In this document: piece by piece, positions 1 to 37,901 of the stretch
How positions within the stretch are numbered: the first letter of the stretch is position 1
How the letters are laid out: every line of letters begins with the position of its first letter
Translations under genes and position numbers: made by a program
The notes under the pieces: model-generated
The model's input: only the letters and a program-made list of their open reading frames with translations
Database searches by the model: none
What the model was told of the DNA's origin: nothing
NCBI GenBank assembly: GCA_008632985.1
Contig: QPGO01000019.1
Location: 620,001 to 684,000, forward strand
Length of the DNA: 64,000 nt
From: Psammoneis japonica
Lineage: Eukaryota
Direction of reading: 5' to 3'

Positions 1-490
1 GTCCCCTGTTGACACAGTGAACAAAGCAAATGCATTTGCCAATGACGCCAATCATGTCAAAGAATGCAGGCCCCCCCTGGCCCACACAAAGCCAGCGGCA
101 AGATGGAGATCTCTCCAAAGAAGACGACAATGAAGCCATTCATTTTGAAATGTGTCATGGTGACAACTCATTCCAGATGTCAGTTTCCGATGAAGATCAT
201 TCGACACCACCAGTGCCCTCTTGGAGAATGAATGTGGACGCACCATGCAGTCAGATGGTGTTGGTTGGTGCAGTGCGTGCGACGATGATCAGTCCTTCCG
301 TCTGTCGTTGGGAAATCCGCGACCACGAACGCCCGCCTTGCACAAACCAACGCGAGCCCCGATCGATAGCCACGCACCCCGCGCAAGCACGCCGCAAGCA
401 CGCCGCACGCCGCACCACTCGAAGATCGACGAGTGCATGCAGGATCTGCATGATGCGATCGTTGTTGTCCATCGCGTCGCTTCTTGTGTC
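1..490. other. TpA-depleted decayed sequence (end of a mutated block continuing left of the window)
   Basis: Only one TA dinucleotide (367-368) found by eye in the first ~490 bp; overlapping ORFs without recognisable product. Confidence 0.6.
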
Positions 491-2171: not shown

Positions 2172-2792
2172 TCATAGCACACGAGACTGCAGTTCACTTG
2201 GTGACTTCTCTTTTGCTCTCCATACAAATCCAATGTCCTCGAGTAGCTTCTTTCGGTAATCGCGAAGAGCGCTCTGGCTATTCAATTTTCTTTGCGTATG
2301 TACCCATTCAGCCAACGGCGGATCAATGGCATACTTCCAAGGCACACGACAATCTCCTGTCACCTCTTTGTATGCTTTCAGTTTCTCCAGCATGGCCATC
2401 CACTCACGGTCCCGCCTGTTTGCTCTCGTCTCCCAAACAAAACCGATTTCGTTCAGACACTTTCGTTGTTCGGCATTCGCTTTCACCTTACCACTACGAA
2501 TGTTTTTTACCCATTCTCCCAAATCTGAGGCAGCTGTGTACTTTGTGCTCAACCGATGAGGAACCAAACAGTGTCCATACCTCAGCTTGAAGGTTTTCAG
2601 ATCTTCAACGTGCTCGTCGAATGTCTTACGCTTCTTTTTTGGGCCACCCGCCGGCGCTGAAGCGTGTTGTTCTCTGGGTTTTCTTTTCTTTGGACTTGTC
2701 TTTGCTGCCGCTGATATTTGCTTAGACATGGCTGATGTACTTGTAGCGGCCGGTGCTGCGTCCTCGTTTTGCGGAAGGGTAGCCTGAGCCAT
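2172..2792 (-). CDS. Helicase-associated (HA) domain protein, two HA repeats with basic NLS-like N-terminus
   Basis: FDEHVEDLKTFKLRYGHCLVP...LGEWV...LNEIGFVW and WMAMLEKLKAYKEVTGDCRVP...LAEWVHTQR...LEDIGFVW; PKKKRK; start at MAQATLPQ inferred. Confidence 0.8.
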   Translation of the reverse strand: MAQATLPQNEDAAPAATSTSAMSKQISAAAKTSPKKRKPREQHASAPAGGPKKKRKTFDEHVEDLKTFKLRYGHCLVPHRLSTKYTAASDLGEWVKNIRSGKVKANAEQRKCLNEIGFVWETRANRRDREWMAMLEKLKAYKEVTGDCRVPWKYAIDPPLAEWVHTQRKLNSQSALRDYRKKLLEDIGFVWRAKEKSPSELQSRVL

Positions 2793-3707
2793 GTCAATAC
2801 CTTGCAGTGAGACGTAGCTGTGGGTCGTTGCCTGAATTTCGCGTTCACTTTCTGTTCTCTCTAGTATCTTATGCTGTAGACAGACATTACCGCATGAACG
2901 ACACGTCAAACTGGCGGACAACCTCGTTTCAGCCAAGAAGGAAATCATGCATCGCCAACACATCGAGCAACCGCCTGAAAGTTTTATCAGTTTTAGGTGT
3001 TTAGTGATGCGTAAAAGCAACGAGACATGACTCTATCACCAACACCAGAACTTACAAGGCACCAGGATAACATGACGTTCTTTTGAAAAGCAACAGCGAC
3101 AGCCCTGTTCTTCCGTCATGGTCGATCTAATCTTTTGATCGAGCGAAGTGAAACTTGGACTGTCTACGTACAACGGCCAGTCACTTGATCTATGGGAACA
3201 TGCAAGCTTACTGCTTCTCGTACCGACCCCAGTAGCATTCTACGTCACATACCAGAATTTTAAATTATTTATTTAGTCATTTATATATCATTACGAATTG
3301 ACAACCACCGATTTTTGGCACGCGACACCACCACGATGACACGTTCCGTCGAACGAGTTCGGGCCCACCCGGAATAGTTACCAAGCCATTTGGGTACAGC
3401 TATATCAATGAGGTACTTGCGGATCATATATGTCTCATTGGCTTGGTAATTCTTCGTGGTTGACAAATAAACGACGGCAAAGGATTCACGTGTTGTTTTG
3501 TCGTGCTTTGGCGTCAAGAGCCAGGTTAGTCGAGTTAATCCCAGTAGAAAACCTACGTAGGCCTACTCTGAGCCACAAGCGCGCGTAATAAGCTTGTACA
3601 CACACGCACGCACGACGCTCATTGACTCCTCCTCCCTCTCACAATACGGTACTTCTATGATAAGTACTAGTATATCTCTTTCCCCGCCTCCACCACTCTA
3701 GAGGGCC

Positions 3708-5787
3708 CTAATAATTAAACCCAACAGGCTTTGGACGTATCTTTTTCTCCACATCACCTTGAACATCGCCGCAGCCTTGTTGCAACGAATCCAGAATGGC
3801 TTCCGCCACCACCATGCCGTCCACAGCAGCAGATACAATCCCCCCTGCAAATCCAGCTCCTTCTCCAGCTGGAAATAAGTTTTCTGTTCCAATAGCTTGC
3901 AGGGTCTGACCATCACGGGATACTCGGACTGGACTTGACGTCCTTGTCTCCACGGCATGAAGCAGTCCATCATCGCACAAAAAGCCTGGCATGTTCTTGT
4001 CAAACTGGTTCACAATCGCGTCCCGGAGGGCCGTCACAATGGCCTCGGGATAGATTTCGTGGCATGCAGCTGGCTTTACTCCAAGACGATACGAGGAAGG
4101 AGGCGCCGATACGGAGGCTCTTCCTGCACAAAAGTCAGTGAGACGCTGTACAGGAACCGTCAGGTTGCCACCTCCCATTCGAGCGGCACGTTGCTCCATG
4201 TCTTTTTGGAACGCAATGCCAGCCAGCACACCGTGTTCCTTACGGTACTTATCGAGGATTGCATCGTCGGGTGCCACCGTCACGACGAGTGCTGAATTGG
4301 CCCACTGCGAATCTCGCTTGCTAAAGCTCATTCCATTGACACAGACTTCGTTGGGATCAGTCGATGCAGGAACGATTTGTCCACCTGGACACATGCAGAA
4401 ACTATACGCCCCCCGATTGGCAACTCCGTCAAATGCCTTGTCAGTAGCGAGGCGATAGGATGGAACAGGCAATTGACCTGGATGAATTGCCTGGTCCACA
4501 CCCAAGTACTGCTTATTGGCCGTGTCGGTAGACTTTTTCTTTGTCACAACAGACGCGGCCCAATCTTGTCCGTATTGAATTCGGTTAATGATTTTCTGAG
4601 GGTGCTCGACACGAAAGCCAGTGGCAAATCCCTTTGCCTCAAGCTTGACACCAGCAGCATGTAGTTCTTCGTACACATCTCGTGCGGAATGCCCAGTGGC
4701 CAACACGACGGCGTCTCCAAGAATGGTTTCCTCCTCTTTCACGGGTAGAGAAGTAGCAGCATTCCCCCCGCGTTCACTTGTTGGGGAGTACTGGACCTGA
4801 ACTCCTTTTGTAACACCCTCATCTATAACAAAGCCAGTCACTTTTGCTCCAAATCGTATAATGCCACCAAGCTGTCGTAAATCTTGTCTCATGTTTCGCA
4901 GCAACCGAACAAGATTGTCGGTACCCAAATGCGGAGCTCCGTCCACAAGTATTTTCTCAGGTGCCCCATACTTGACCAGTGTCTCCAATACATATCTCAC
5001 ATTGTCCGAGTTACGTCCAATCCGTGTCGTGAGCTTTCCATCACTCCACGTTCCAGCGCCACCCTCACCAAAACAAAAGTTGGAATCTTTGTTTAGAAAA
5101 CGTCTGTGCATGAGAGCTCCAATATCCTTTCCTCGTGCTTCGACTGGCTGACCACGTTCAAGCAGTATGGGCACACAGGCGCCCGATTTTGCCAATTGCA
5201 TGCACAAAACAATCCGCAGGTCCAGCTCCACAATCACGACACGGGGCTTGTTGGATTCTGGGTGCTGTGGCTTATTTCGCTGCAGCATTCGAGACAGTAG
5301 CCTCTTGATTTTCAATCAATTCCAATCGTCCCGGTTGGTGTCGTAGCTTGAGTCTCTTGGCTATGGATGGCGATACATCTACATCCACTACATGAGAATA
5401 TCGTGGATCACCTCGATTCTTCCGTCGTGCATCTACGGATCGACGAACCATGCGCACGTTCGACAGCTCGACAGATTTGTTTTTGAGATTGAGTCGCTTG
5501 GAAGAGCTACCAAGACGGGCTTGGATAAATACATTTGTCGATAGTCACCGCTTCGTCCGTAGTAGCGGTCAAAGATCAGGATGAACATTGACTCCAAACA
5601 CTCTCCACGTTTGTGTCTCTCTATGGGGTACGTTAGATCTGTCATGGTTTGTTTTTGACTTTATCTCCGTGTTTCTGCATCTTCTAGAATGAGAATTACA
5701 CGAGAGCGATGTTGATGTCCATCCTGAAGAGGAATATACAATGCAAAGTAGCAGTATTAGCGACTCTTTTGTTCTTAGAATCGCCAT
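3708..5787 (-). CDS. FAD/NAD(P)-dependent oxidoreductase (uncharacterised conserved dehydrogenase family) with N-terminal targeting peptide; 5' part carries several apparent frameshifts
   Basis: GEGGAGTWSDGKL, VVLATGHSAR, SFCMCPGG, ETRTSSP, GEGAGFAGGIVSAAVDG motifs; the Rossmann GAGPAG and VRRSVDARRK segments lie in shifted frames at 5200-5580; hydrophobic N-terminus MAILRTKESLILLLCIVYSSSG. Confidence 0.8.
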
Positions 5788-5866
5788 GACGACGGCTTCA
5801 GAAAAAAAGAAGAAAAATGAGGGATGATTGGCACTGGATGCGATGTGCGATGCGTGCATGCGCGCG

Positions 5867-6004
5867 ATTGTAGCAGCGCAGGGGGAAGGACAGACGCATC
5901 CACCTCCCACCGTACGCAGCCTTGAACGAACCTGAATGCCAATGGCATTCTTTGCAACTCGTCGCCGCCTATCGAGGCCGTAGTAGTAGTTGTAACTTTT
6001 TGAC
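5867..6004 (+). repeat. Split direct repeat A1 (138 bp; second copy A2 at 11941-12078)
   Basis: Ungapped alignment to A2 with 8 mismatches. Confidence 0.95.
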
Positions 6005-6037
6005 AAAGGGAGCGACATACGCCAACCTTGTCCTCTC

Positions 6038-8122
6038 ATGGCTGCTGTCCCTCCTGTGGCAGCCGGTGGAGCGCCTCCGGCTCCCCCAAAAACACACCAC
6101 GACAAGTGGATGAGTCAAGGAGATCACTTGGGTGGGGAGTGTGCGAATTTGTTCCGTCGGCACGATGCCACCATCGCTGCTCCCGAGCCGGCCGCCACGC
6201 CACTCGAGCACATCATCGACTTGAGCGATGTGGTCCCCAAGGCCTTCTTGGCGCCAGTGCGGCAAGGCACAGGTTGTCGTGCAACCTGCATCCACCGGCC
6301 CTCTGTGTGCATCAGAGACCCGGTGGAGACCTCGCCTTGGGACGGACGAGTGTTTTGTTTTCACGGAGACGTCCCACCGGGTAATTTTGTTGCCATTTTC
6401 GAGATGCCCAACACTCCGTTCGACATTGTGGGGCCTCAAGTGGCACCTGCTGTGGCCAACATGGCCGCCCTCGAAGGTGCCTTGGTGGATGACAATGATT
6501 TGACACCTCCACAAACAGATGGCGCCCCGGACACCGACACCATCTATGTCCGCCGCCTCGTACAAGTGCCCCACGCCCACCTGCATCTTGCACTGACCCA
6601 GGATCTCACCCCACTGCAAGCCTGGCGGGAACTGGCAGGAGCAATCCAAAATGACGGTCGCGCGGGGGACTTGAGTCCTCTCATCGACTGGTTGCGCGCG
6701 GCACTCACCACCGACACCGCGGCAAATCCAGATCCGGTCCATTGTCTGGGCGACCGTGCCACTGCCTTGCTGCCACTTGCGGTGGACGCCAGACTGCAAG
6801 AGCATCGTTGGCGCACGTTGCTGCAAGACCCACCCGCCTTGGATTCAACGGCCGTTGATGACACCGACCGTGTGCTGGCCTTCGCTGACATGGTGCGAGC
6901 CGATGCAGCCCACGTGGAAGCAACACGCTCTGCAGCTGCAGCCGCAGCCTCAGTGCCCAAGACTCTGGTGGAAGCCTTCCCGCAGACCACACCCGTGTGG
7001 CTCTTGCTGTCGAGCGCACCGGACGATGCAGCCTTGCCCGCACTGTGCCACGCTTGGGCCAATGGTGCAAAGGCCGAGCGGCACCTGTGTTTTGCTCGGG
7101 CCTTGGAAGCGCACACCCAAGAACCCAACGCGGCATCTCGCATCGCACCTGTGGTGTCGAAGGAGCCATGCGAGATGGCATTGCAAGGGAAGGTTGCACC
7201 CCACGTGCACCAAGTGAACGACTTAACCGCCGGCGTGTCGCCCTTCACCTGTGGTTTCTTTCTTGCCGGACAAGGTTCCACCATGCAAGTCCGGGCCGAA
7301 CGCTACGACCTTGCGTTGGCTGGCAACCTGACACCTGCGGTTGCGGAACAAGAGGAATTCCGCACCAAGGGTGTGCCGCTGCCGACGTCCACTTGCCATT
7401 GTGGAAGCATGCTTCAAGCCACCAGCCCAGTCTTGGACGTCATCCAAGGCTCCGACCACCCACATGCTGTGGCTTTCCGGCAGTTTTGCCTGGAGGACTG
7501 GCGAGACATGGTCGACTTGCTCGAGCAATCCGGGACCCTGCTGGCAGAGGGAAACGTCCCACCCCGGATTTGTCGCGAGGTGCAGATGCTCATGGGGGTC
7601 TGTCTTCGCAGGCTCACACAAAGCGGGGTGCCCCGGGTGCCTGACTGCACCGCAGTGGCGTACAAGGTGCTGCACGGGCAATTCTCCCTGCTGGCACAGT
7701 TGCCTTGTCATCTGCTGGGCCAGCCAGACAGGGCGGGTGGTCCCCAAATGAGCTCGACTGGCGCCCCCAACAGCAGGACCACCTCCGCACCAGCCACTGC
7801 CGCTGGGCGTCGCGATCCCGGTGCGGCCGTTACGAGTCCCAACCCAGTGCGAGCTTGGCCAGCAGCCTTCGCACAAGCCGGAATCCGTTTGGCCACGGTG
7901 CGCTGCTTCGCACCCCGCACCATGGACCCGAGTGGCACCGCACGCAAAGTGTGCCTTTCGCATCATCTAAAGGGGACGTGCTTCGCCAACTGCGAGTGCA
8001 GCAGCACCCACCGGAACCTCTCGCCGCATGAAAGAATGGCAATGAGCACCTTCGTCCGCGACCACGTGGCCAACCCTCAAGAAGGTGGGGCCCCAGCACC
8101 GGCGCCAGCGGCATCCACCTGA
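6038..8122 (+). CDS. Gag-like ORF1 of the Ngaro-like element with C-terminal Cys/His zinc-finger-like motif (mutated)
   Basis: 694-aa ORF just after A1; C-terminal VCLSHHLKGTCFANCECSSTH; only 3 Tyr in 694 aa. Confidence 0.8.
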   Translation: MAAVPPVAAGGAPPAPPKTHHDKWMSQGDHLGGECANLFRRHDATIAAPEPAATPLEHIIDLSDVVPKAFLAPVRQGTGCRATCIHRPSVCIRDPVETSPWDGRVFCFHGDVPPGNFVAIFEMPNTPFDIVGPQVAPAVANMAALEGALVDDNDLTPPQTDGAPDTDTIYVRRLVQVPHAHLHLALTQDLTPLQAWRELAGAIQNDGRAGDLSPLIDWLRAALTTDTAANPDPVHCLGDRATALLPLAVDARLQEHRWRTLLQDPPALDSTAVDDTDRVLAFADMVRADAAHVEATRSAAAAAASVPKTLVEAFPQTTPVWLLLSSAPDDAALPALCHAWANGAKAERHLCFARALEAHTQEPNAASRIAPVVSKEPCEMALQGKVAPHVHQVNDLTAGVSPFTCGFFLAGQGSTMQVRAERYDLALAGNLTPAVAEQEEFRTKGVPLPTSTCHCGSMLQATSPVLDVIQGSDHPHAVAFRQFCLEDWRDMVDLLEQSGTLLAEGNVPPRICREVQMLMGVCLRRLTQSGVPRVPDCTAVAYKVLHGQFSLLAQLPCHLLGQPDRAGGPQMSSTGAPNSRTTSAPATAAGRRDPGAAVTSPNPVRAWPAAFAQAGIRLATVRCFAPRTMDPSGTARKVCLSHHLKGTCFANCECSSTHRNLSPHERMAMSTFVRDHVANPQEGGAPAPAPAAST

Positions 8123-10214
8123 GGACGAGGGCCGGCCAGCTCTAGAGCTGGCCTGCAGCCCTCCTCTGCACACTTGCCAGATCCGTGCCAGCAGTGCTCG
8201 CGCAGCAACGAACTAGGTGAGTTAGCAGAGGAGCACGTCAAACTCTTACAAACTTCAGGCTAGAGCCAGTTCGTTGCACATTTGCGCAGGGAGCCGTGTC
8301 TGGCCGAAAATGTTCAGCAGTCACCTCATCCAGCTGCCAAACTGCTTTCCGATCTCCGCAACGATGGAGCACCGGTCCAGTTTTCAACGGAGGACTGGAC
8401 ACCGGACCAGGTCCGGATGGCCACCGAGCGCGGAAGCCATCCGTCCACCAACGAGCACCTGGGTTTCCTCGAGTCGGACATGGCGGACATGATCCGAAAG
8501 CAATGCTGGACAGTCCTGCCGTTCCGTGAAGCCTGCAAGTTGCCCCACCTGCGCGTCTCACCGATGGGCGTGGTGCCACAACGCGACCGCCACCTGCGCA
8601 CCATCATTGATCACAGTTTCTACGGGATCAATGACGAAACCGTGAAACACGCCCCACCGGAGGCAATGCAATTCGGCCGAGCTCTCGACAGGTTCCTCCA
8701 CAGGATCTTTCGAGCCGATCCGAAGCATGGCCCAGTGCACATGCTCAAGCTTGATCTCTCAGACGGATTCCATCGCGTTGGGCTCCGCCCCCAGGACATG
8801 CCAAAGCTTGGGGTGGCCTTCCCAGTGAGTCCAGGCGAGGAACCGTTGGTGGCACTGCCTCTCGTCCCACCCATGGGCTGGACTGAAAGTCCACCATTCT
8901 TTTGTGTGGGAACGGAAACTGTCGTTGACATTGCTGACAGCTGTTTGCCCACATCGTGGGACCCTCCGATTCACCCACTCGAACAGGCGGCATCCACTCC
9001 AGTGCCCCACGACGACACCATGCGCATCGATGTGCCACCGCCTTCCACTGCAGCTCTAGCCAGCCATGTGTCACGCCTTCCTTCTCCCACCGCACTTCAT
9101 CGCAGACACCAGCGCGGCTCCCAACCGTTGGAGCACTTTGATGTCTACGTCGACGACGAGATGTGCGCCACACAAGGATCGAAAGCTCGCCTCAACAAAT
9201 TATGTCGCCGCCTCTTGCACATCAACGACCAAGTCTTCCGGCCCAACACACCATCCGATGCTCACTGGCGGCGCGAGACTATCTCGCTCAAGAAGCTCCT
9301 CAAAGGTGACGCGTCCTGGTCTGCGGTCAAAGTTGTTTTGGGTTGGCTCATTGACACGCTAGCAGGGACAATCCAATTGCCGCCGCATCGACGACAACGC
9401 CTCCTGGACATGCTTGCTGACACCATTCCACGTCACCGCACATCCAACAAGCAATGCCACAAACTTCTCGGCGAAGTGCGCAGCATGCTGTTGGCGGTTT
9501 CCGGCGGCGCTGGCCTGCTCTCCAACCTCCAGCACTCTCTTGCCACCTCGAGTAACTCCCGCACTCGAATCAACCGTCATGCGCGCCGCCAACTCCAAGA
9601 CTTGCACACCTTGGCGGCAGACATTGCCTCTTGTCCCACGAGGCTCGCCGAACTGTTCCCTGCCGCCGATGGGCACTGCTGTGGTGCGTGCGACGCAGCC
9701 AAACCAGGGTTTGGCGGCGCGTCATTGCCAGGTCCCCTCGACGACTTCCCTCCGACCGCCTGGCAAATTCCACTGCCACCGGATCTGCAAGCTGCCATTG
9801 TCTCGGACGACAACCCCGATGGCACCACAACAAACTCTGACCTCGAACTCGCCGGAACTGTTTTGTCAAGAAGCCGTCGTAGGCATCACCGTCGATGTCA
9901 GAGAACGCACGGTCCACACGTGCTGCGACAACACCCCCGCGATTTCTCGACGCGGCAAAGGCTCCATCACCACCAACGGCCCAGGCGCCGATGTCCTGCG
10001 AACCAGCAGCCTGCAACAACGCAAGCTCCGACATGTCTCCCGCTTTCATTGCATGCCTGGCCCAGCAAATCTCCTTGCCGACATGTGCTCCCGCAAATTC
10101 AGCACACCGTCTCACCTCCTTGCCACTCTCACTTGCCTTGCCCCACAGACGAAACCTTGGCAAATGCCACTCCCGCCGCCCAACATCGTTTCTTTGCTGA
10201 TCTCCACCTTGTGA
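8118..10214 (+). pseudogene. RT-RNase H ORF2 of the Ngaro-like element
   Basis: SPMGVVPQRDR, LKLDLSDGF(H)R, PMGWTESPP, YVDD, CDAAK.GFGG, NSDLELAG, CDNTPA motifs; in-frame TAG at 8261-8263 and frameshift near 9865. Confidence 0.88.
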
Positions 10215-11731
10215 CGGCAAAGGCCCGCGAAGCTGTCACTGACAAGCAAGCCTGTGCCACGGACACTGTCTGGGCCAAATGTTGGTTGCCATTCCCACCC
10301 GACATCAGAGTTGAAGACCCTCTCCTCACCGGTGTCCAAGACAAAATCCCGATGCTCCAAGTCTTTGCCTGTCGCCTCAGGGATGGACGCCTCAGCCATG
10401 GCGGCAACCCAATCTCAGCTCTGCACGTTCGTGACGAAGTCCTTCATGTCGCGAAGACGTTCACCGAACTGGGGGCCCCGGACCCACGTTTAACGCCACA
10501 TGGCACCATGGATCCACGTCTCACTCGCCTGCACAGCGCGTGCTCCAAAGACGATCCACCTCCGAACCGTGTTAAACCTCTCCCAACACAAACAGTGCAC
10601 CACGCGCAGGCCCTTGTCGACAAATCTTCCCCACTCGACAACGCCATCATCGACATGTCCTGGATTGGGCTCTTCCACCTCTTGCGACCAGGTGAACATT
10701 GCAAAAGCAAAGACAATGATCCCTTGGTCTTGGCCGACATCAAGCTGCTCATTGGACAACGAGCACTCGACCACTTGACCTGTCCATTGCCGCAGCTGTT
10801 CCTCGCTGCACACAGCAGCATCACCTTCAACATTCAGAAAAACCGAGAACGCGGCAAAACGGCAGGTCACGCTCGAAGCTCACACTCCAAAGTGTGCCCC
10901 ATGCTGCCATCGCCCGCCACGTGCATTGCCTGCATTCAAATGGCGCCAACGCTTGAACAGCCCTGTGTGCCGTGCGCCTCGGCAGATGTTGGGGGACGTG
11001 TTCCAGCTCTAGGTGGGACCTCGTGCTGCTGAACTGTGACACAATTATTTTTTGTCATCCGTCGTATGTTTCGCACGTACATTTCTACGTGTTCCATTGT
11101 AAAAAATTGTTCCACACTGCCTGTTTTGCGAAGCCAAAGGCTTTCTGTTGTCTGCACTTGTGTCAATAAAAATGCGCTGGGCACATTCTTTAATGTCTAA
11201 AGAATGTGCCCGGGCATGCTGTAAAGAATGCACTTAAAGTGTGGAGGAGGAGATGCATTCGCAAAATTGCCTCTTTTTCTGTTGGCGATCATTCATGTGT
11301 CCATTGCTCAACGATTTTACTGCGGAGCTCGCACGTAGAATTCTGCGGGCCCAATGTCACAAAAAGTCCCACCTAGGACTGGAACCCGTCGGGGTCACGT
11401 CACAAGCCGTGCCATCACCAAAATGCTCCAAGTGTTGGCCGCCACCTTGCCACATCTGGGCTTCCCACCCAAGGACGTCACCGCACGTAGCCTCCGAGCA
11501 GGGGGCGCCACGGCACTCCTGTGCACCAAAGCAGACACCGACATCATCCACCTCGTCGGACGATGGAAATCCAACACCATGTTTCGACACCTTCATGCCC
11601 AAGCGCTGCCGCTGATCGCAGGACTCTCCACGAAAATCCTGAACCACGGCAACTTCACGTTACTCCCGGGTTCCGACGTCCCCCCCGTTGCACAAAATGT
11701 CATCAATCAAGCCAAAGCACCCGCCAACTGA
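10150..11731 (+). pseudogene. Tyrosine recombinase ORF3 of the Ngaro-like element, interrupted by a MITE
   Basis: DPPPNRVKPLP, LLRPGE(H)C, QKN, RSLRAGGATALL, VGRWKSNTMFR(H)LH; frameshift ~10900, TGA ~10955, insertion 10995-11390; start approximate. Confidence 0.88.
10995..11390. mobile_element. Non-autonomous DNA transposon (MITE), 396 bp, ~25-bp imperfect TIRs, GGGG target-site duplication
   Basis: Left GACGTGTTCCAGCTCTAGGTGGGAC vs reverse-complemented right GACGGGTTCCAGTCCTAGGTGGGAC; GGGG at 10991-10994 and 11391-11394; excision restores YR frame LGRCWGHVTSRAITKML. Confidence 0.85.
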
Positions 11732-11810
11732 CGGGTTCACATCTTTGCCCACCCTCAGCTCCGCTTCTGGCCCAACCCCTTGTCACTTGTCGGCGCTCCA
11801 AGAGTGGCAG

Positions 11811-12236
11811 ATCGGAGGCGGTCTCTGTTGCTGGTGAGCCAAAAGAGGGCAAGATGCCCCAGCAAAGCGCTGACACCACCAACTGCCACCTCCCAACTAC
11901 AGTGGGACGCACCCCCCAGCAATGTTGGTGGCAATCAGCCATTGCAGCAGCACAGGGGGAAGGACAGACGCATCCACCTCCCACCGCACGCAGCCTTGAA
12001 CGAACCTGAATGCCAATGGCATTCTTTGCAACTCGTCGCCGCCTGTCGAGGCCGCAGTGGCAGTTGTGACTTTTTGACCCTCCACTCCCACCCAGTGCCG
12101 CCTCATCGGAGGTGGTCTCTGTTGCTGGTGAGCCAAAAGAGGGCAAGATACCCTAGTGAAGCGCTGACACCACCAACTGCCGCCTCCCAACTATAGTGGG
12201 ACGCACCCCCCAGCAGCGTTGGTGGCGAACAGCCAT
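11811..12236 (+). repeat. 3' split repeats B1-A2-B2
   Basis: B1 11811-11942 and B2 12105-12236 are 132-bp direct repeats flanking A2. Confidence 0.93.
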
Positions 12237-15951: not shown

Positions 15952-17069
15952 GATGTGAAAGTGATGTGAAACTGAAAAATAGAAAAACGGGAGAACATAA
16001 AATAATGAGGGACCCCATAACCCACATAACCCGCCCGCCGCCGCGCACACCATCCACCTCGTGCGTTACGACCCTAACTTTTTCCGTACCCACGCGGTTT
16101 CGCGCGATTGCCCTATTTAAACAAAATTTTCAATTATGAAGAATACCAACATAAATAACAAAACTTTTCTATTCAAATAAATACAAATAAATGTGTGCTG
16201 TTTCGACCGTGACAGTTTTGTCTAATGGCATTACAAGCCCTATCATAGGACAGACTTTGGACCTGTAGTTTGGACAATTGCGAAGAGATCCGTGCCATAT
16301 ACACAACCGGACGACACATCTGAATGGACTATGGCAATAGGGTGCAAAAAAGTGACGGACAGACGCATACATACTGGGGACGTATGTAGACACCATGGAA
16401 GAGTGACTTTTGGCGATAATTTCCGAAATCTTCTGTCCTATTCAAAGTTTTGCATTATGCATAGGTTTTGTCAGCAGGGCTGTGCACCCTGCTTCATAAG
16501 TGTCTAAACTAAATGTCTATGGGTCGAAATGTGTTTTAAGCCGAGTCATTCTTCTGAAGCTGCTGACAAAGAGGAAAGGCAACATTTTCTATTCAAATAA
16601 TATAACACCAGGAAATATGTGATTAAATATATAAATAATAATGAAATAACAATTAGGGTCTGCGGGAAATCGCGGATTGAGGCGAAAAACGCAAAAAATC
16701 TATAGCAGAAATGTTAGAAGTAGTGTGATGACACATTGCATCTAGCAGTAGCACCGGTGCGATTTCAGCCTAGAGATTATGAACTGTGCTGTTTTACAAA
16801 AAGAGAACAGTGCCCAGGCCTTTATAGAAATACTCATCATTGCTTTTGAGGTTGCCTTGCGCACTGTCATGTTCTCAGAATCGGAAACTGCGGCATGTCG
16901 TGAAAGCCGTCGAGTCCCTGCGCCGTCGCCGAGCATTGGTGCTGTGCCAGGCTTGACACCTTCAACTGGTGGGTGCCAATTTGCCATGGATGGCACCAAC
17001 TTTGGTTCACCATCTGTTCGCAGGGCTGGAACAAAGAAAAACAATGTTTCCAAAGAAAATTGTTCTGTC

Positions 17070-18072
17070 CAATTGTAGATCCTTGTAATCTGCGTTAAAA
17101 AGTGGTTCACCATTTTGAATTGCAAGCTGTGTTATGACAGCTACAGCCTGAAATACATCGGCATGCTTCGACAGTGGTTTGTGGCGAAACCTTTTCTCCA
17201 GAATTGCCCAATTTTTGAAGCGTTCGTGCACGTCTCCTGTCGATTGAGAGCACGCCTCTGCATTTCTTCCATCTCCTTCGGGTTTGCAAAACTGCTGGGG
17301 CACTTAACATGGATGGGGGACTCACCCACACACCCATCGTCAGCCTCCATGCGTTCCCCTTGTCCAGTTCCGTCTTCAATGCCGATCGAAAAATGTCCAA
17401 GTCGTTGTGCACACCGGGCGCAAAGGGCCCATTAATCCACACAATGTGACCGGTCAAAATGCATGCTGCACTTCGTAACGAAGTCCGCAGTCATTGAATT
17501 TATGAGAGTAAAACTTCCTGCCGTGATTCGGGACACGAAAGTCTGTTCCGTCCACAGCAACTGGACAATCGTTTCCGACGTCACCAGTGCGGCGATTCTC
17601 CCAAATCATCTGGGCAGAACAAACAACAACACAAATGATGCGGGTGAGAATCAATTTTTTGAAAAATGTGGAAATGTTGTCGCAATTGGGCACTCACCAA
17701 GCATGGCTCGAGCAATGCAATGGCCTTGATCATTGGCCACTTCCATGTTCGGAAAGTTTTTTCGTCGACTCCCCCAGCTTTGCCGGCAAGGTCAGTTTCC
17801 TTGCCATCAGATTTCAAAAAATTAAGTGCCCACAGCATGTGGCAGGCATTTGCTCCGTGGGGCAGCACGTCGTGGTGGACGAGGAGGTTCCACAGCGCGA
17901 GAGCCACGATTGGGCCGCAACCAAAAAACTCACGAAAACGCCTGTCCTCGGTCATTGTGGCGCCAAACTTCTTGTCACCTCTGTTCATCATTCCACGCCC
18001 CAAATTCATGAGGTCCTGCAGTCCGAGGGCAAGCCAGCGCATCCTCTTTTTATCTGGTTGAAAAGCGGCCAT
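17070..18072 (-). pseudogene. Harbinger DDE transposase (DDE_Tnp_4-like), one intron (~17610-17696), about three frameshifts
   Basis: FREFFGC, VDEKTFRTWKW, VAVDGTDF, YSHKF..GLRYEV, TGHIVWINGP, EADDG(C)VGE, ERFKNWAIL..RFRH motifs across frames; 3' end approximate. Confidence 0.85.
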
Positions 18073-18842
18073 GGCGAGTGGTGGGCCGGAGCAAAACAAT
18101 GTTGTCTCAGTGTGAAGCATGAAGCGCAACAACAAAATCTCAATGATTGGTGGGACTGGGATGTCTTCCAGTGTGGACCGTAGCAGTGCCACTGCGCGGT
18201 GCGCACGTGGGACACTGCCTCCATGATGCGCAGATCTCTCGTTTAGCTGGGTGCGTGACGTGATGCAGTTGGATGTTTTTGTAGCTCTTGCGCAGAAAAG
18301 ACGCTTTTTTTTTTAGGCGAGCTCACGCGTTTTCTGCCACACATTTTTAGAAAGTGTGACAAAACTTTGGCTCAACGGAAAGTTGTGGCCACAGACATTT
18401 TGCTGCACATCCGGGTTTCTTCTTCAATCCCACAGGATTCTCAGTGCACTTTCTACACGAGCTTAGAGAATCCGGATGTACAGCGAAAAACTGTGACCAA
18501 AGCTTTACATCCGGGTCTTTGTGTGACGTAGCTGCCAGCAGTGATTCTACGTAACATCCGGGTTACATGCAAAGCCAAAGTTGCGCCATCAAAGTTTTTT
18601 GTCGAAAAGCTGTGACGCAACCAAATAGCCCACATAATCAGGGGCCCAAAAATGTGTGATAAAAATGTCATTTTCACGAGTTCGTTGTAGAGATGTGCTA
18701 GAGATCGCGCCATTTGTCCGTTGGTGTCGGTCTTGTTGATCGATCGTTTCAGAAAAACCAAAGCAGCTCTGCTGTTTGCTGTTCACACGGCACACTCAAC
18801 ACGGCCCACAACCCACAACAGGAGGAAGCCACGACGAATGCC

Positions 18843-20159
18843 ATGAGCAACGGCAGCTCTGCTCGTTGGACGAAAGAACACAACAAAAGGCTTGTGGAGC
18901 TTGTCAAAGCTGGCAAGATTGATCCGCAGCTCATTGACTTGCAACACGTCAAGAAGGCACACGAGAAGCACTTCAGTGACCTTCTGAAGTGTCAGACTTT
19001 CGCTCAGCAGTGCCGCAAGAAGTGCAAGCAGTTGGAAGTCGACGAACTTCTTGCAGGCAGGCGGAAGCAAGGCAAGCACCACAACAATGCCATTCTTGCT
19101 TGTTTTGTTATTCTTGTGCTCGTGCCATCGTCTGCCGGTGTCTGCTTTGATTGCACGACTTGCCACAGGCACCAAGCGACGCACCGAGGAAGAAGTGAAA
19201 GACCAAGAGGAGTCGAGCAAGGAAGAGGAAACCGAAGACGAATCCTCAGAAGACAAAGGCGCACACTCAAGTGACGAGGAATTTGGCACCAGCATGCCGG
19301 GCAAGACAAAGACCACCCCCAAGAAGTCCCAAGACGTGAACAACGACCTCGCATCAAAGTTCAAGTCGTCTGCTGTGATTTCGTCTTCTGGCAAGAAGAA
19401 GGTGGGGAGCAACAAGAAGGCAGACGCCTTTGTGAAGAAGGGAGCGATGACTCGTGAGTGTGGCTACTTTTTCTTAGCGTCTCCGTGGGCGGCGTCCGAC
19501 AAGCGCATGCACGTGACCGTGGATGTCCTTGTTCCGCCTTTCGCCACGTCACACTGGCACCCGAAGGTGTCTGATTGCGGCACCAAGGTGATCATCAATG
19601 AGCGCATCCCTTCTTGGATGTTTAGGAAGGATCGTGTGTGCAAATCTGTTCTCACTTCTAGGCTCTCTCTACAGAAGACCAAGTCCTGAAGGAAAGCGGA
19701 ATCGAGCAAGCCGGACAGGCGCTGCTCAAGTCTCAAGGCGTTGAAGAGACTGTTGGCAACGGCAAATGCCGCATGGTTCTCTACCGCCCCCACACTGTTC
19801 GCCTTCCATTCCCCTGTGAGAGTGATTTTTATTCTGCAAGCAGCAAGGCCGGTTGGAAGCTCGAAGCATTTGTCCATGACAACGAAGAACTTGTGGAGCA
19901 GGCGCAAGGTCACATGCTCCTTTCGATGGAGCTGGTGGCGGTGGAGAAGCCACTAGAAGAGGGCAAGGCAGTTGAAAGGATCAAGTTTCTTGGTCAGTCC
20001 CCTCTAGATGCTGCAATTGCCAAGAAGGAAGCGAGGCGCAGTCGTGAGGCACAGTGCGGACGTGCAGCGGCGGCGGGAGAGCACGTCAGCGGCTGTGATG
20101 ACATGGACTCCGATTCGGACAGTGAGGGCAACCTCAAAGATGATGATGATTACTTGTAG
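18843..20159 (+). pseudogene. Harbinger ORF2, putative Myb/SANT-like DNA-binding partner, with a likely intron 19072-19168 and frameshifts
   Basis: N-terminal ARWTKEHNKRLVELVKAG helix motif, acidic linker, position inside the TIRs opposite the transposase; splicing joins RRKQ to GTKRR. Confidence 0.65.
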
Positions 20160-20586
20160 GCATTGTTCTGTTTTTCTAAATAGCACAGTTTGTAATCTCT
20201 AGCCTGACATTGTAGATGCAATTGGCTTCGATGGCTTGGGCCTACCTGGCAGGCGTCCGTAAGATAAGTAAGACCGGACCCGCATTCGTCACATTTCTGC
20301 AAGATTTATGTGCGTTTTTCGCCTCAATCCGCGATTTCCCGCAGACCCTTACACTTGAGAGTTAAAAATTAGAGAAAATACCGGGACAAAAAATGTTGTC
20401 CTCAATAATATGACTCTGCTACATAGAGGTTGAAATGATATTCGCCATGATGATCTACATTATTTGTGTACAACGCCCAGAGATGACTTTTATTTTTTCG
20501 AAAATTCATCGGAACGAAATGACGAAACAGAAACAGCACCAAATTTACCACATTGAAATCAAAACACGAGGCTTTATCTCCCCGCT

Positions 20587-22601
20587 ATGACAGCCGCTGA
20601 GGAAGAAATTGAAGTTGACTTGGAGGAGCATGAAGAATTGGTTTTGGATAGTTTGGATGACACAGAGCACTCACGCGCTATCGAGTTGCCGAAACCGACA
20701 CCTGTGCATTTGGAGTACGGCGTGACCTTTTCTATTGAGACCGGTGAGAAGAAGAAGAAAGCGTTGTTGGAATGTGTTAAAGGAGAAGCAAAACCTGGTG
20801 ATTTAGTGGCCATAGTCGGAGCGTAAGTCGTTTCAACTTCGCTGATCAATTCGATGATAGCCATGACGGATCTTACTCATACATGCGCAGTTCTGGTGCA
20901 GGCAAGACCACACTCCTGACTGTTTTAGCGGGTCAAAAGTCTTCCTTTCGTGGCAGCGTATCCTTCAACGGCGTACCAATATATAAAGTACTGCAGAGCG
21001 AATCCCCTCTCTTTTGTTTCGTCCAACAAGAAGATTTATTCATCCCGAGCATCACTCCGCGGGAACACTTGATTTTCTCAGCACGTCTTCGTATTGACAG
21101 AAGCGTGTCTGACGAGGACAAACTCCGCCGTGTTGATGAGCTGTTGGAGGAATTAGGTCTAAAAAAGTGCGCAAACACTCCTATTGGAGGGGCCGGCGCA
21201 CTTGTCCGTGGACGGATCTCAGGTGGAGAACGAAAGCGTCTAAGCCTCGCGACAGAGCTCTTGTCGAATCCATCCGTTATCTTCACGGACGAACCCACGT
21301 CGGGTTTAGACAGCTTCATGGCTGAAACTGTGGTGGCAAAGCTTGGTAGCCTTGCTCGGGCGGGACATACGATCTTGGCAACGATTCATCAGCCATCCTC
21401 CTACGTCTTCTCTGCTTTTACAAAACTTCACTTGTTGTCGAATGGAAGAACCGCCTACTCAGGTACAACGTCAGGTGCCGTAGAATACTTTGCATCCATT
21501 GGAAAGCCGATCCCGCAATTCTTGAATCCAGCAGATTACTACATTAAGCTGCTGAGCATTCCAAGTGTCTCGGAGGAAGTCCTGGAAAAGTGGGAACAAA
21601 GAGCAATCGTTGAAGAAGATGCAAATTGCCATCGACGAAGCAAGCTCAGAAGGGCTTCGACTGTGAAGCTTATGCTCGCAAAGAAGAAATATGCTGTGTC
21701 CTGGTGTACACAATTCAATCAGCTCATGAAAAGGACAGTGTTGGCTTATAAGCGTGACGCAACACTCGGAAGGATTCGTCTGGGACAAACCGTTATAGTC
21801 GGCTTGGTGGTGGGGGCGATCTTTGCCATGCTTGGCAAATCCCCAATCAAGGCCGACAACGTCCAGTCAGTGAATGGTATTCTTTTCTTTTCTGTATTAA
21901 ATCAGAGTCTCCTTGGCTCAATAGGAGTGCTGCAGGTTTTCCCGCTTGAAAAGCCGATATTTTTGCGTGAAACATCGGCAAGTTCATACAAGACATCATC
22001 CTATTTCATGGCAAAATCCTTTGCAGAGTTTCCTTTCCAGGTGGTGTTCCCTTTTATTTTTGCAACCATTATTTACTTCTTAGTCGGTTTTGGTGCCGCC
22101 GGATCCGCCGGCTCCTACTTTACGTTCGTGTTGTTTGTTGTCTTGACGGCAGTTGCCGCAGTGAGTTTTGGATATTTCTTCGGGAGCATTGTTCCGAGCG
22201 TCGGACTAGCTCTGACTGTGGGTCCGTTATTTCTCATGGTAAGTTGTTATCTTTGTTGTATCTAGTCATTCTAGGAACGCATCGATCTGACGAATGTTTT
22301 CATTATGGGGTTGCAGCCGCTTATTATCTTCGGTGGGCTCTTTATGAATGTCGACCAAATTGATCCCTGGTTTGTGTGGATATCGTACCTGTCTTTTGTG
22401 CGTTATGGTTTTGAAGGAGTGATGATCGTGATTTGGGAGCAGGAAGGCGATCTTGGTCGCGCAGTTTTGGAATCATTTTCATGGAACGTCGACCACAAAT
22501 GGCGAAACGTTGGATGCCTAAGTGCACTCATTCTTGGTTCCCGAGTTCTGGCAATGGCAGCTCTCAAATTCCAGTCCGTGAACAAAACTAAAACGAGATG
22601 A
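20587..22601 (+). CDS. ABCG (White-like) half transporter; introns 20823-20890 and 22239-22316
   Basis: Walker A GASGAGKTT across intron 1, signature ISGGERKRL, Walker B IFTDEPTSGLDS, TIHQPS, then a multi-pass TM domain; GT-AG introns. Confidence 0.93.
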
Positions 22602-22756
22602 AAAAAATATGACACGGCAAAAAGCACTTCCGACTGGCGTTCTTCGAAAACTCAATTTATTATGATTTTGGATGCTGCAACACTGCTGCCGTGCTCTACT
22701 AAATAAGGAAGTTCCCATCCTACAAGTGGACCAAATTCAGTTTACAGCTAAACAGA

Positions 22757-28088: not shown

Positions 28089-28150
28089 TGTGGATGAAGC
28101 AAGACCAGCCCTCCAGCAGTGTGGATGAAGCAAGACCAGCCCTCCAGCAG
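28089..28150 (+). repeat. Perfect 31-bp tandem duplication
   Basis: TGTGGATGAAGCAAGACCAGCCCTCCAGCAG twice. Confidence 0.9.
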
Positions 28151-30859: not shown

Positions 30860-31008
30860 GAAAGTTTGAGCAATTGCCCAAACTTGCATCCACCATTTGC
30901 TCAAACTTGGCAAGTTTGAGCAATTCCTCAAGTTTGCTGCAAGTTTGAGCAAATGCTCAAACTTTGAGATTGCTCAAACTTGCACAAGTTTGAGAAATTG
31001 CTCAAACA
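30860..31008. repeat. Cluster of short direct and inverted AAGTTTGAGCAA/TTGCTCAAACTT motifs (further copy ~31552-31570)
   Basis: Roughly ten half-sites forming AAGTTTGAGCAATTGCTCAAACTT-like dyads. Confidence 0.75.
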
Positions 31009-35747: not shown

Positions 35748-36362
35748 GAAATGTGACCACTGTCATGTGGGGATTCCAACTCTACATGTCTTGCTGTGAT
35801 GTCAATGTGCACCTCACACAAAACAATCTTGCACACTTTCCACAATGCCCAGACTTGCTTGTCACTGCCCAAGTGCTTGGACTTCATCCTTGCACAGGTC
35901 AGGATGCCATCCGACAACTTCCCCCCCAGTGCCCAAAATCATTCCAACCATCAAGGCACATTGAGTGTGCTTCATTTTTTCTTGCTGGCCTGTGCCTGGG
36001 AAATGCTGCACATGGAGCTCCACAGAAGCTTGAGTCATTTTGTGCAATGACCGCCAATGAAATGTGACCCACTGTCATGCAGGGATTCTAGCTCTGCATG
36101 TCTTGCTGTGACGCGAATGTGCACCTCACACAAAACAATCTTGCACACTTTTCACAACACCCAGACTTGCTTGTCACTGCCCAAGTGCTTGGACTTCATC
36201 CTTGCACAGGTCAGGATGCCATCCAACAACTTCCCCACCAGTGCCCAAAATCATTCCAACCACCAAGGTGCATTGAGTGTGCTTCATTTCTTGCTGGCCT
36301 GTGCCTGGGAAATGCTGCACATGGAACTCCACAGAAGCTTAAGTCATTCTGTGCAATGACTG
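35748..36362 (+). repeat. Tandem duplication of a ~310-bp unit
   Basis: GAAATGTGACC...TGTGCAATGAC repeated at ~35748 and ~36059. Confidence 0.9.
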
Positions 36363-37757: not shown

Positions 37758-37901
37758 AGAAATATCACACGGAATACAGCAGTTTCGAGAGGCGTTCTTC
37801 GAAATCTCTATTGTTATGATTGTAGATGCTGCAACACTGCTGCCGTGCTCTACTAAATAAGGAAGTTCCCATCATACAAGAGGACCAAACTCAGTTTACA
37901 G

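Follow-up and report, generated by a model that had tools for sequence, protein, structure and literature searches.

The question raised by this locus is how a retrotransposon can retain very long open frames and yet lose almost all of the tyrosines that its relatives conserve, and in which direction its DNA has changed. The window, meaning here the whole stretch of 64,000 nt that was analysed, is diatom nuclear DNA; the best named relatives of one of its host genes are all diatoms (65–70% identity) and the relatives of the transposon also come from diatoms. A protein-atlas query with a host gene returned solely clusters with bacterial names, which were uninformative on taxonomy. A preliminary description of the letters alone had proposed that conserved Tyr was replaced by His or Cys, and Leu by Pro, in the reverse transcriptase (RT) and the recombinase, that single TA→CA or TA→TG steps explain these changes, and that they fix the direction as a loss of TA. 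The analysis presented here favours, with a probability of about 0.8, a TpA-specific transition process that acted after integration on a dead copy of a diatom Ngaro element and on four other islands, leaving a signature of the type reported for Bigelowiella natans.

Architecture of the element

Positions 5864-12236 are one dead copy of a multicopy Ngaro-type tyrosine-recombinase retrotransposon with gag, RT/RNase H and tyrosine recombinase, composed of the following features:

5864..6004, + strand: outer split direct repeat A1, which keeps 7 TpA and is 93.6% identical to 11938-12078 (self-BLAST)
6019..12148, strand not given: TpA-depleted tract, with 26 TA in 5734 nt without the MITE, o/e 0.115
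6038..8122, + strand: gag-like ORF1, 694 aa, Tyr 0.4%
8213..9862, + strand: RT and start of RNase H (tblastn with P0021 and P0001)
8261-8263, + strand: TAG stop, TGG in other copies
9864..10214, + strand: remaining RNase H in the +1 frame, after a one-base shift at 9860/9864 (frame switch relative to 114-120 relatives)
10331..10903, + strand: N-terminal part of the tyrosine recombinase, including LLRPGE[H] at 10697
10995..11390, strand not given: MITE-like insertion of 396 nt with 25-nt inverted ends
11414..11731, + strand: C-terminal part of the tyrosine recombinase (ARSLRAGGA ... GRWKS ... FR[H]LH)
11811..11942, + strand: inner split repeat B1, TpA lost, 91.7% identical to 12105-12236
11938..12078, + strand: inner split repeat A2, in which the 7 TpA of A1 are all CA (4) or TG (3)
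12105..12236, + strand: outer split repeat B2, TpA kept at 12149, 12154, 12192 and 12194

The published definition places Ngaro in the order DIRS and gives it gag, pol (RT/RNase H), a tyrosine recombinase and A-pol-B-A-B repeats (PMC3783388). The window element has the three ORFs, and its terminal repeats follow the order A1-interior-B1-A2-B2 that Ngaro requires; it differs in that this family, intact relatives included, matches the RVT_1 profile below the Pfam cut-off and Phage_integrase not at all. In tblastn, ORF1 matches ORFs located 5′ of pol in 40 related loci, and a Pfam search with it returned no family. The pol region has 573 relatives at E ≤ 1e-3 (39-58% identity among the best matches listed), and its RNase H motif aligns to P0021. 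RVT_1 was found at E = 0.008, under the Pfam cut-off, and Pfam at E ≤ 0.01 gave no match for the 916-aa ORF, gag and the recombinase fragments; because intact relatives are likewise weak, the absent match is not due to mutation alone. Tblastn with the family proteins detected no second copy elsewhere in the window.

The identity of the recombinase was approached through its fold. The Pfam profile Phage_integrase was unmatched by the window recombinase and by intact relatives, and a profile of 20 recombinase relatives found no recombinase among PDB sequences. The predicted structure of an intact relative (pLDDT 83.5) matched Cre with a probability of 1.00 and a TM of 0.5-0.66, and the fold search with this model returned 28 chains at E ≤ 1e-3. 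The residues conserved in the family are R, K, R, W and Y, which, together with their spacing, presumably correspond to the catalytic residues of Cre. By predicted fold and motifs, the element appears to encode a tyrosine recombinase in place of a DDE integrase. Absence of a methyltransferase domain separates Ngaro from DIRS1 and PAT; neither the window nor its relatives gave a Dam/methyltransferase Pfam match, which is weak evidence in so divergent a family, and the gap between RNase H and recombinase is only about 40 codons.

Extent and specificity of the TpA loss

The o/e of 0.115 in the interior of the element compares with 0.49-0.68 (about 0.6) in the host DNA and with 0.30-1.02 in 78 related loci, which were retrieved with the pattern DGFYR, a choice that favours unmutated copies. 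In pol, TA o/e is 0.13 in the window and 0.33-1.02 in the 47 longer, non-duplicate matches out of these 78 loci, whereas the remaining 15 dinucleotides of the window pol all fall inside the family range. Among 1265 one-kb windows taken from the 78 loci, a single one lay under 0.2. The loss is confined to the TpA dinucleotide and to a tract with definite borders. Low TpA could also be native to the family, or selected in it by codon use, avoidance of UA-cleaving RNases or foreign origin, with no mutation involved, and it is true that high GC (0.47-0.64) and a moderate shortage of TA (median o/e 0.54) are native to the family. This explanation is scarcely plausible, since none of the 78 related loci reaches down to the 0.13 of the window copy, invariant catalytic residues are gone from a copy that also has a frameshift and a stop, and the depletion ends within the element's own repeats.

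Conserved tyrosines and consequences for the proteins

The effect on the proteins was quantified at Tyr-consensus columns, that is, those with Tyr in at least 50% of the relatives. There are 16 in gag, pol and recombinase, and the window copy keeps Tyr at 1 of them, with His at 9, Cys at 2 and other residues at 4, while 74-79% of the non-Tyr consensus columns are retained. The 1028 aligned codons of pol and recombinase contain 12 Tyr columns (1 kept, His 7, Cys 1, and Phe, Asp and Ala 1 each), against 417 of 529 other consensus columns kept (Fisher p = 5.7e-7). The 4 Tyr columns of gag read His, Trp, Cys and His in that order, and 114 of its 154 other consensus columns are kept. The polarity from Tyr to His/Cys put forward in the preliminary description, recombinase nucleophile included, is thus borne out by 11 His/Cys columns against 4 other replacements. 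All five peptides on which it was based are present in their frames (KQCWTVLP, 8498-8521; DGFHRV, 8762-8779; LPLVPPMGW, 8855-8881; GLFHLLRPGEHC, 10667-10702; GRWKSNTMFRHLH, 11558-11596), and each highlighted codon is one TA>CA or TA>TG step from a Tyr or CTA codon:

Codon 8504, + strand: TGC in KQ[C]W; among 120 relatives, Tyr 40, Phe 38, Gln 26, His 13
8771..8773, + strand: CAT (His) in the RT motif DGF[H]; Tyr in 120 of 120 relatives
8867..8869, + strand: CCA (Pro) in LPLV[P]PMGW; Leu in 111 of 120 relatives, Pro in 1
Codon 10697, + strand: CAT in RPGE[H]; Tyr 42 of 62, His 12
11588..11590, + strand: CAC (His) at the recombinase nucleophile, FR[H]LH; among 151 relatives, Tyr 146, His 3, Cys 2

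The five sites do not carry the same weight: DGFY, the nucleophile and LPMGW are strongly conserved, whereas the RPGE[H] column is only moderately conserved and KQ[C]W is a weak case. Homologues with the replaced residue are rare at the three strong sites (0/120 for DGFY, 5/151 for the nucleophile and 1/120 with Pro in LPMGW). At ten Tyr columns of RT/RNase H the window copy has 6 His/Cys, and the 120 relatives have 0, 1 or 2 in 52, 44 and 23 proteins, respectively, and 5 in one. Leu to Pro changes do occur but are minor, accounting for 2 of the 18 changed Leu columns, and the Pro-richness of the 916-aa ORF (10.3%) is close to the family-native level of about 9.5%.

Composition follows the same trend. 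The 916-aa ORF has 0.2% Tyr (1.2-3.6% in relatives), 5.9% His (about 3.8%) and 3.4% Cys (about 1%). Among the 123 changed consensus columns, one TA step would account for only 19 and a CpG step for a further 17. CpG decay therefore adds to the Cys/His excess through Arg>Cys/His changes, and TA loss is not the sole source of the Cys/His-rich character ascribed to these ORFs. Stop codons have been depleted too: both strands of 4976 nt of the tract contain 13 TAA and 18 TAG, and an equal length of host DNA contains 108 and 82. The 916-aa frame continues through an out-of-frame stretch past the +1 shift at 9860/9864, which agrees with the earlier proposal that removal of TAA/TAG leaves misleadingly long ORFs. 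Long open frames free of Tyr and rich in His/Cys may be called as proteins by gene finders.

Direction and timing of the changes

Four independent lines of evidence agree that TA was lost, as had been claimed, and the polarity is TpA to CpA/TpG. The split repeats provide an internal record. Seven of the 9 differences between A1 and A2 are TA in the outer copy and CA (4) or TG (3) in the inner one; 7 of 7 TpA were lost against 2 other changes in 141 nt. In the B pair, 3 of 11 differences are TA versus CA/TG, plus one double site, and TA is always in the outer copy. Over both pairs the outer repeat has TA at 10 of 10 such sites (p = 0.002), whereas the two host duplicates differ by TA versus CA/TG at 41 of 282 differences in an undirected manner (22 vs 19; Fisher p = 6e-5 against the repeat pairs). 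Two sites deserve caution: at 5971 of A1 most other copies have TG, like A2, and the TA of A1 may have arisen later, by G>A in the window copy; the double site of the B pair (GCA/GTG) could have its origin in CG as well as in TA. The other genomic copies of the element point the same way, with TA at CA/TG sites of the window where nearly all of them disagree with it. At 37 TA sites compared between a TpA-depleted gene paralogue of the window and its normal twin, TA>CA was found at 18, TA>TG at 3 and TA kept at 1. Finally, the columns at which 97-100% of the relatives agree on Tyr show it to be the ancestral residue. The last observation also bears on a reversed polarity, in which RIP-like C>T changes would have created TpA elsewhere and the depleted tracts would be the unmutated state: a comparison of two copies alone gives no direction, but the ancestral Tyr, together with host DNA and 78 related loci that are far richer in TpA than the tracts, makes the likelihood of this scenario negligible.

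The repeats imply that the changes took place on integrated DNA and not on RNA, because at sites with CpA/TpG in the inner repeats the outer ones still have TpA; the argument presumes that A1 = A2 and B1 = B2 at insertion. Action after integration is in this way visible in the element itself. An alternative is UA-directed A-to-I editing of the transcript by an enzyme resembling ADAR or ADAT, whose products reverse transcription would have fixed before the element integrated. The element does replicate via RNA, and known adenosine deaminases are reported to favour UA (Mettrop et al., bioRxiv 10.64898/2026.01.13.699255). Editing of one strand, however, would yield sense TA>TG only, and here TA>CA is the commoner change with both products on one strand; uniform editing of a transcript cannot leave TA in the outer A1 and B2 while removing it from the inner twins; and the same loss is found in a gene paralogue and in a tract with inverted repeats at its ends. 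RNA editing is on these grounds very unlikely.

A technical origin is also very unlikely. Modified bases in transposons might make T/A at TpA be read as C/G during sequencing or base calling, and the only public run containing the stretch may be the source data of the assembly, with its platform not recorded. Other copies in the same run, however, differ site by site, including TA at some CA/TG sites of the window, and the window copy carries ordinary lesions (the frameshift, the TAG stop at 8261-8263 and the MITE insertion). Some of these can be followed in other copies: one base is missing at 9866 in three contigs, and two contigs run from 10986 to 11387 without the MITE. Public proteins from other sources also have a His/Cys nucleophile (5/151), one relative is changed at 5 of 10 Tyr columns, and the same signature is reported as experimentally validated in B. 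natans (bioRxiv 10.64898/2026.01.13.699255).

Targets and spared sequences in the window

The Ngaro tract is not alone: four further sharply bounded islands of the window share the TpA loss, which makes five in total, and depletion in the islands is near saturation (o/e 0.03-0.21). Three of them can be described as follows:

16832-20150: depleted 3.7-kb element bounded by inverted repeats
25.7-37.1 kb: depleted 11-kb island
57006-59093: depleted paralogue of a host-like Cys-rich gene, from the 57 kb/61.5 kb gene family

Pfam found no match in the ten stop-to-stop ORFs of the element at 16.6-20.4 kb and no real match in 27 frames (TGA read as X) of the island at 25.7-37.3 kb. Transposons may thus become hard to recognise, as in this 11-kb island without a detectable domain. 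Other sequences were spared. The host duplicates at 22127-25748 and 37293-40838 are 87% identical and have normal TA, and the MITE at 10995-11390 has normal TpA (14 TA, o/e 0.49) and a GC of 0.46 and is very abundant, with a summed sequencing depth of 68,000-160,000 vs 300-1,100 across most of the element. Because these duplicates and the MITE keep normal TA, the process is not triggered by repeats; and with host genes spared as well, it is directed at certain mobile or foreign tracts and not at repeats in general.

The distribution of CpG is relevant to the possibility that TpA was lost passively in silenced or methylated chromatin, through context-dependent mutation or repair bias, with no dedicated targeted editing system. 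The islands are all likely to be silenced DNA, and CpG decay accompanies the loss: CG o/e is 0.11 for the island at 25.7-37.1 kb and 0.63 for the one at 57 kb, and of the 38 differences private to the window copy that have the best support, 16 are CG>CA/TG. Against this, the two losses are uncoupled, since CG o/e is 0.83-0.85 in the Ngaro tract and 0.11 in the big island; the 7/7 TpA lost in the A pair vs 2 other changes imply a TpA rate many-fold above background; the MITE within the tract is untouched; and the B. natans process is described as episodic and line-specific (bioRxiv 10.64898/2026.01.13.699255). A passive origin is accordingly considered unlikely.

Comparison with known systems

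The single report so far of TpA-specific, GC-increasing hypermutation of invading DNA is a 2026 preprint on a chlorarachniophyte, B. natans (Mettrop et al., bioRxiv 10.64898/2026.01.13.699255). There, 230 of 231 new mutations in two hypermutable regions are A>G or T>C, all of these GC-biased mutations are at TpA and arise de novo, and the TpA-poor coding sequences are enriched for reverse transcriptase and DDE domains; a chemistry of the adenosine-deaminase kind (A>G, 5′ U/T preference) is proposed, and diatoms receive no mention in the text of the preprint (bioRxiv 10.64898/2026.01.13.699255). The likeness lies in TpA-only changes to TpG/CpA on integrated foreign or mobile nuclear tracts, and the window displays the corresponding features: TpA-only loss, CpA plus TpG as products, and bounded mobile or foreign tracts. 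The differences concern host, targets and degree. B. natans belongs to Rhizaria, and its main targets are reported to be giant-virus and virophage insertions with partial depletion (TpA 1.8-fold lower), whereas in the diatom depletion is near saturation and has reached a Ngaro retrotransposon, an element with inverted repeats at its ends, an 11-kb island of no recognisable identity and the paralogue of a gene. No report of diatom TpA hypermutation was found in open-access papers and bioRxiv. A near-saturated diatom example would extend the process to a second major protist lineage, one that is ecologically dominant and has genetically tractable model species in which the enzyme could be sought by knockout. 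It would also add mechanistic constraints: action after integration, a stop inside the element's own repeats, independence of copy number and perhaps a strand bias.

Repeat-induced point mutation (RIP) of ascomycetes changes C to T at CpA in duplicated DNA and creates TpA and stop codons. It resembles the process in the window in its dinucleotide-specific transitions on integrated DNA, the missense inactivation of mobile elements and the sharp bounds of its tracts. The window process is opposite in direction, removes stops and spares 87% identical host duplicates and the MITE, and fungal RIP was rejected as an explanation on account of this polarity and the unaffected host duplicates. Natural ADAR and ADAT enzymes act on RNA. 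They share with TadA-derived adenine base editors the A>G outcome and the 5′ U/T preference seen here; the window changes, in contrast, point to integrated DNA and to both strands.

Proposed mechanism and strand bias

In the favoured reading of a TpA-specific process, almost every interior TpA would have been converted to CpA or TpG once the element had integrated. Conserved Tyr, including the invariant RT residue and the recombinase nucleophile, would have been replaced by His/Cys, and removal of TAA/TAG stops would have kept even out-of-frame DNA open. The same process probably struck the four other islands and spared host genes, host duplicates and the MITE. Its chemistry may be adenine deamination, in which the A of TpA on one or the other DNA strand becomes I and is then read as G, and the process may serve as a genome defence. 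A transcription unit may set the limits of the tracts, and its template strand may have been hit more often; a transcription-coupled model fits poorly with B. natans, because its main target is reported as transcriptionally silent (bioRxiv 10.64898/2026.01.13.699255).

A broader and clearly more tentative proposal, which we regard as possible but doubtful, is that diatoms have a natural DNA adenine-editing defence that marks entire transcription units in mobile or unwanted DNA and turns TpA into CpA/TpG on the chromosome, with a template-strand bias and independently of copy number and of CpG methylation decay. Such a system might be old and widespread in SAR protists because the same signature occurs in a chlorarachniophyte. 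If true, it would mirror fungal RIP, and the enzyme behind it would be nature's equivalent of the adenine base editors used in the laboratory.

No RNA run is listed among the public sequencing runs that contain the stretch. Two candidate regularities were discarded: the tract has more CA than TG in raw counts, which is native to related loci and does not serve as evidence of strand bias, and a rule that a 3′ purine blocks editing failed on the inferred events. A bias of the sense strand is seen in Tyr>His (9) vs Tyr>Cys (2) and in the paralogue (TA>CA 18 vs TA>TG 3). It is uneven across classes of sites, with Ile>Met at 3 vs Ile>Thr at 1 and, in the repeat pairs, CA at 7 vs TG at 4.

TpA-poor islands in the window

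The DNA of the window has a G+C content of ~46%, an observed/expected (o/e) TpA frequency of 0.5-0.7 and a CpG o/e near 1.0. Five islands with sharp edges stand out from this background, in which TpA is almost absent and CpA and TpG are enriched. The affected tract at 1-366 probably continues past the left edge.

TpA-poor islands of the window
1-366: island 1, 0 TA, at the left edge of the window
6019-12148: island 2, which holds the finding; TA o/e 0.16 (0.115 without a later insertion)
16832-20150: island 3, TA o/e 0.21
25745-37100: island 4, TA o/e 0.05, CG o/e 0.11
57006-59093: island 5, TA o/e 0.03

Judged by its sequence relatives, the source organism is a diatom: the named best relatives of the host gene at 3708-5315 (65-70% identity) all come from diatom genera, and the named relatives of the pol of the element in island 2 are likewise diatom. 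The ORF at 2172-3020 contains an HA domain.

A dead Ngaro-type element

Self-comparison revealed two pairs of direct repeats, A (5864-6004 and 11938-12078, 93.6% identity) and B (11811-11942 and 12105-12236, 91.7% identity). Their order is therefore A1-interior-B1-A2-B2, which the available text of PMC3783388 gives as the order that defines Ngaro elements. The interior encodes a gag-like protein, an RT/RNase H and a tyrosine recombinase. The RT/RNase H has 573 relatives at E <= 1e-3 (best 57-58% identity) and the C-terminal part of the recombinase 1160. Pfam matches are weak in this divergent family, intact members included, and the recombinase profile found no match among PDB sequences. A fold comparison paired the predicted model of an intact recombinase relative (pLDDT 83.5) with Cre recombinase at probability 1.00, and R, K, R, W and Y are conserved in the recombinase alignment, presumably as counterparts of the Cre catalytic residues, at similar spacing.

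Features of the element
6038-8122: gag-like ORF, with homologues lying upstream of pol in 40 related metagenome loci
10995-11390: MITE-like insertion of 396 nt with 25-nt inverted ends, splits the recombinase

The window copy is dead. Besides the insertion, it has a stop codon at 8261-8263 (TAG, against TGG in other copies), and its frame shifts by +1 at 9860/9864 when compared with 114-120 relatives, at a place where one base is missing in three contigs of other copies; the first frame is regained by about 10330, as compared with the fused Fragilaria protein P0021. In X1, the one public sequencing run that contains this DNA, some contigs pass from the element's right end directly to its left (joints 12236>5873 and 12067>5994), a sign that the family may have tandem copies or circular forms at other places in the genome.

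Loss of conserved tyrosines

The preliminary description had read a directed loss of conserved Tyr and Leu codons from KQCWTVLP, DGFHRV and LPLVPPMGW in the RT and from two recombinase peptides, all of which were found in their places. The His of DGFHRV (CAT, 8771) occupies a column with Tyr in 120 of 120 relatives, the Pro of LPLVPPMGW (CCA, 8867) one with Leu in 111 of 120, and the His at the recombinase nucleophile, in FRHLH (CAC, 11588), one with Tyr in 146 of 151. The other five relatives, three with His and two with Cys at the nucleophile, are public proteins from other samples. At RPGEH (CAT, 10697) Tyr is the majority residue (42/62) but His is also frequent (12/62), and the Cys of KQCW (TGC, 8504) is a weak case, its column being variable (Tyr 40, Phe 38, Gln 26 and His 13 of 120).

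In a frame-aware count over 1028 aligned codons, one of 12 Tyr-consensus columns was kept, seven had become His, one Cys and three other residues, whereas non-Tyr columns were kept in 417 of 529 cases (p = 5.7e-7). A MAFFT-based count with the frameshift uncorrected was similar (10 Tyr columns, 1 kept, 5 His). The four Tyr columns of gag read His, Trp, Cys and His, against 114 of 154 other columns kept. His at one or two Tyr columns is ordinary variation: across the ten Tyr columns of RT/RNase H, 52 of the 120 relatives have no His/Cys, 44 have one and 23 have two. The window copy has His/Cys at six of the ten, and the sole relative that comes close is P0047, a public pol relative with His/Cys at 5/10. 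Tyr makes up 0.2-0.4% of the ORFs of the element, compared with 1.2-3.6% in relatives and 1.4-3.4% in ten tabulated host ORFs.

The observation of the preliminary description therefore stands, and its interpretation has support, subject to three corrections. Leu>Pro occurs at the LPMGW column but is a minor trend overall; TpA loss contributes to Cys/His richness, as do CpG decay and the general CA/TG enrichment; and conserved residues were indeed replaced, but missense cannot be placed as the first cause of death.

Low TpA might be a trait of the family, in whose 78 related metagenome loci the TA o/e of pol ranges from 0.30 to 1.02 (median about 0.54). This was rejected, as the window copy lies below the related loci, among which 1 of 1265 one-kb windows has a TA o/e < 0.2. 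In the 47 loci with longer, non-duplicate matches, the TA of the window is far outside the range (z = -3.6) and every other dinucleotide inside, in a comparison biased toward unmutated copies by one of the two search patterns, which needed an intact DGFYR. High GC and Pro content are native to the family and not products of the process.

Polarity and timing

Four lines of evidence bear on polarity and timing: the Tyr columns, the repeat twins, the other copies and a gene paralogue. The two members of each repeat pair should have been the same when the element inserted. In the A pair, seven of nine differences are TA in the outer A1 against CA (4) or TG (3) in the inner A2, and every TpA of A1 (7/7) is changed in A2. 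The B pair has TA in the outer B2 against TG or CA in B1 at three sites, plus one GCA/GTG site that could derive from CG as well as TA. In host gene duplicates, used as a control, such differences number 41/282 and 31/322 and are undirected. Since the twins are expected to be identical at insertion and the inner ones are changed, the TpA changes arose on integrated DNA. The depleted tract starts about 15 nt beyond A1 and stops about 45 nt inside B2. Site 5971 of A1 is TG in most other copies, and its TA may have arisen later in the window copy, by G>A.

The other copies come from one run, X1, which is possibly the source of the assembly and so not independent; there the summed depth of the family is roughly 5-25x that of the flanks over most of the element. 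Of the places where the other copies almost all disagree with the window copy, the 38 with the best support were compared (1122 further places differ beyond these). CA/TG of the window copy faces CG at 16 of them and TA at 4; CA and TG face each other, in either order, at 4 double sites, TA of the window copy faces TG at 2, and 8 show other kinds of difference.

The tract 57006-59093 and the normal ORF 61537-63468 are paralogues with about 66% identity. At the 37 TA sites of the latter, the depleted paralogue has CA at 18, TG at 3, TA at 1 and other dinucleotides at 15, and the conserved GYQAC motif reads AHQAC. The tract is virtually TpA-free, and its 512-aa ORF lacks any Tyr. The process may also hit gene duplicates, not transposons alone. 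The normal-looking ORF is lineage-specific and Cys-rich; the protein collection contains only two relatives for it, and ShK and PT domains occur in one.

Nature of the process

CpG decay accounts for part of the changes, since 17 of 123 changed consensus columns fit a CpG step, against 19 that fit a TA step, and it also yields Arg>Cys/His in the element. As the cause of TpA loss it was rejected: CG o/e is independent of that loss, at 0.83-0.85 in the Ngaro tract, 0.63 at 57 kb and 0.11 in 25745-37100. RNA editing fixed by reverse transcription was rejected as well, because both CA and TG products lie on one strand, TG, the product expected on the sense strand, is less frequent than CA, the outer repeats escaped, and the inverted-repeat tract (16655-20349) and the gene paralogue are affected too. 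Induction by repetition was rejected because an 87% host duplication and the abundant MITE have normal TpA. The duplication (3.6 kb, 22127-25748 and 37293-40838) flanks the largest island. The MITE, within the depleted tract, holds 14 TA (o/e 0.49), with a summed contig depth about 100x that of the Ngaro family in one run; it either inserted after the mutation episode or is not a target.

It is likely that a TpA-specific process acted on mobile or unwanted sequences in the chromosomal DNA (probability roughly 0.8). TpA-targeted adenine deamination of that DNA would be the most likely mechanism, and it may serve as a defence against mobile DNA. The same signature is known from Bigelowiella natans, where, according to the available text of a 2026 preprint (10.64898/2026.01.13.699255), TpA hypermutation arises de novo in mutation-accumulation lines. 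Two regions proved hypermutable there, one an integrated giant virus and the other a virophage. Of their 231 new mutations, 230 were A>G or T>C, and these GC-biased changes all fell at TpA, giving TpG or CpA. RT and DDE domains were over-represented among TpA-poor coding sequences, and the authors suggest that an ADAT2-like deaminase acts on adenine in the DNA; diatoms do not appear in that text. A full-text search of open-access papers and bioRxiv found no report of TpA hypermutation in diatoms. The present case is best filed with that of B. natans, in a second lineage and near saturation. It behaves like a mirror image of fungal RIP, but without its direction and duplication trigger. Hypermutated copies of the element family probably exist in other diatoms.

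Sequence context and strand can be addressed tentatively. The TpA remaining in the tracts has a 5' A in 5 of 113 cases (30% in host DNA) and a 3' T in 10 of 113 (28%), so that ATA/TAT appear struck hardest and YTAR relatively spared; the inferred events did not bear out a strict context rule. On the sense strand, Tyr>His exceeds Tyr>Cys (9 vs 2), as CA exceeds TG in the paralogue (18 vs 3), whose ORF is oriented opposite to the element, and in the repeat pairs (7 vs 4); Ile>Met and Ile>Thr show the opposite trend (3 vs 1). This TA>CA bias, with tract edges that leave out the outer repeats, might point to a link with the transcription unit and the template strand.

Other islands and their surroundings

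The 3.7-kb element at 16655-20349 has inverted-repeat ends (16655-16714 vs 20349-20291, 16762-16868 vs 20210-20118), and its TpA loss is confined to the interior, 16832-20150; no protein families were found in its ORFs. The 11.4-kb island at 25745-37100 has CpA and TpG near 1.8-1.95 and all six frames open except for TGA, and none of 27 read-through frames has a detectable Pfam domain. A transposon, or a nest of them, degraded past recognition is its probable nature, and it lies exactly between both copies of the 3.6-kb host duplication. These copies and 41841-52060 hold tandem genes with laminin-G/concanavalin-like domains, of 65-87% identity and normal dinucleotide frequencies.
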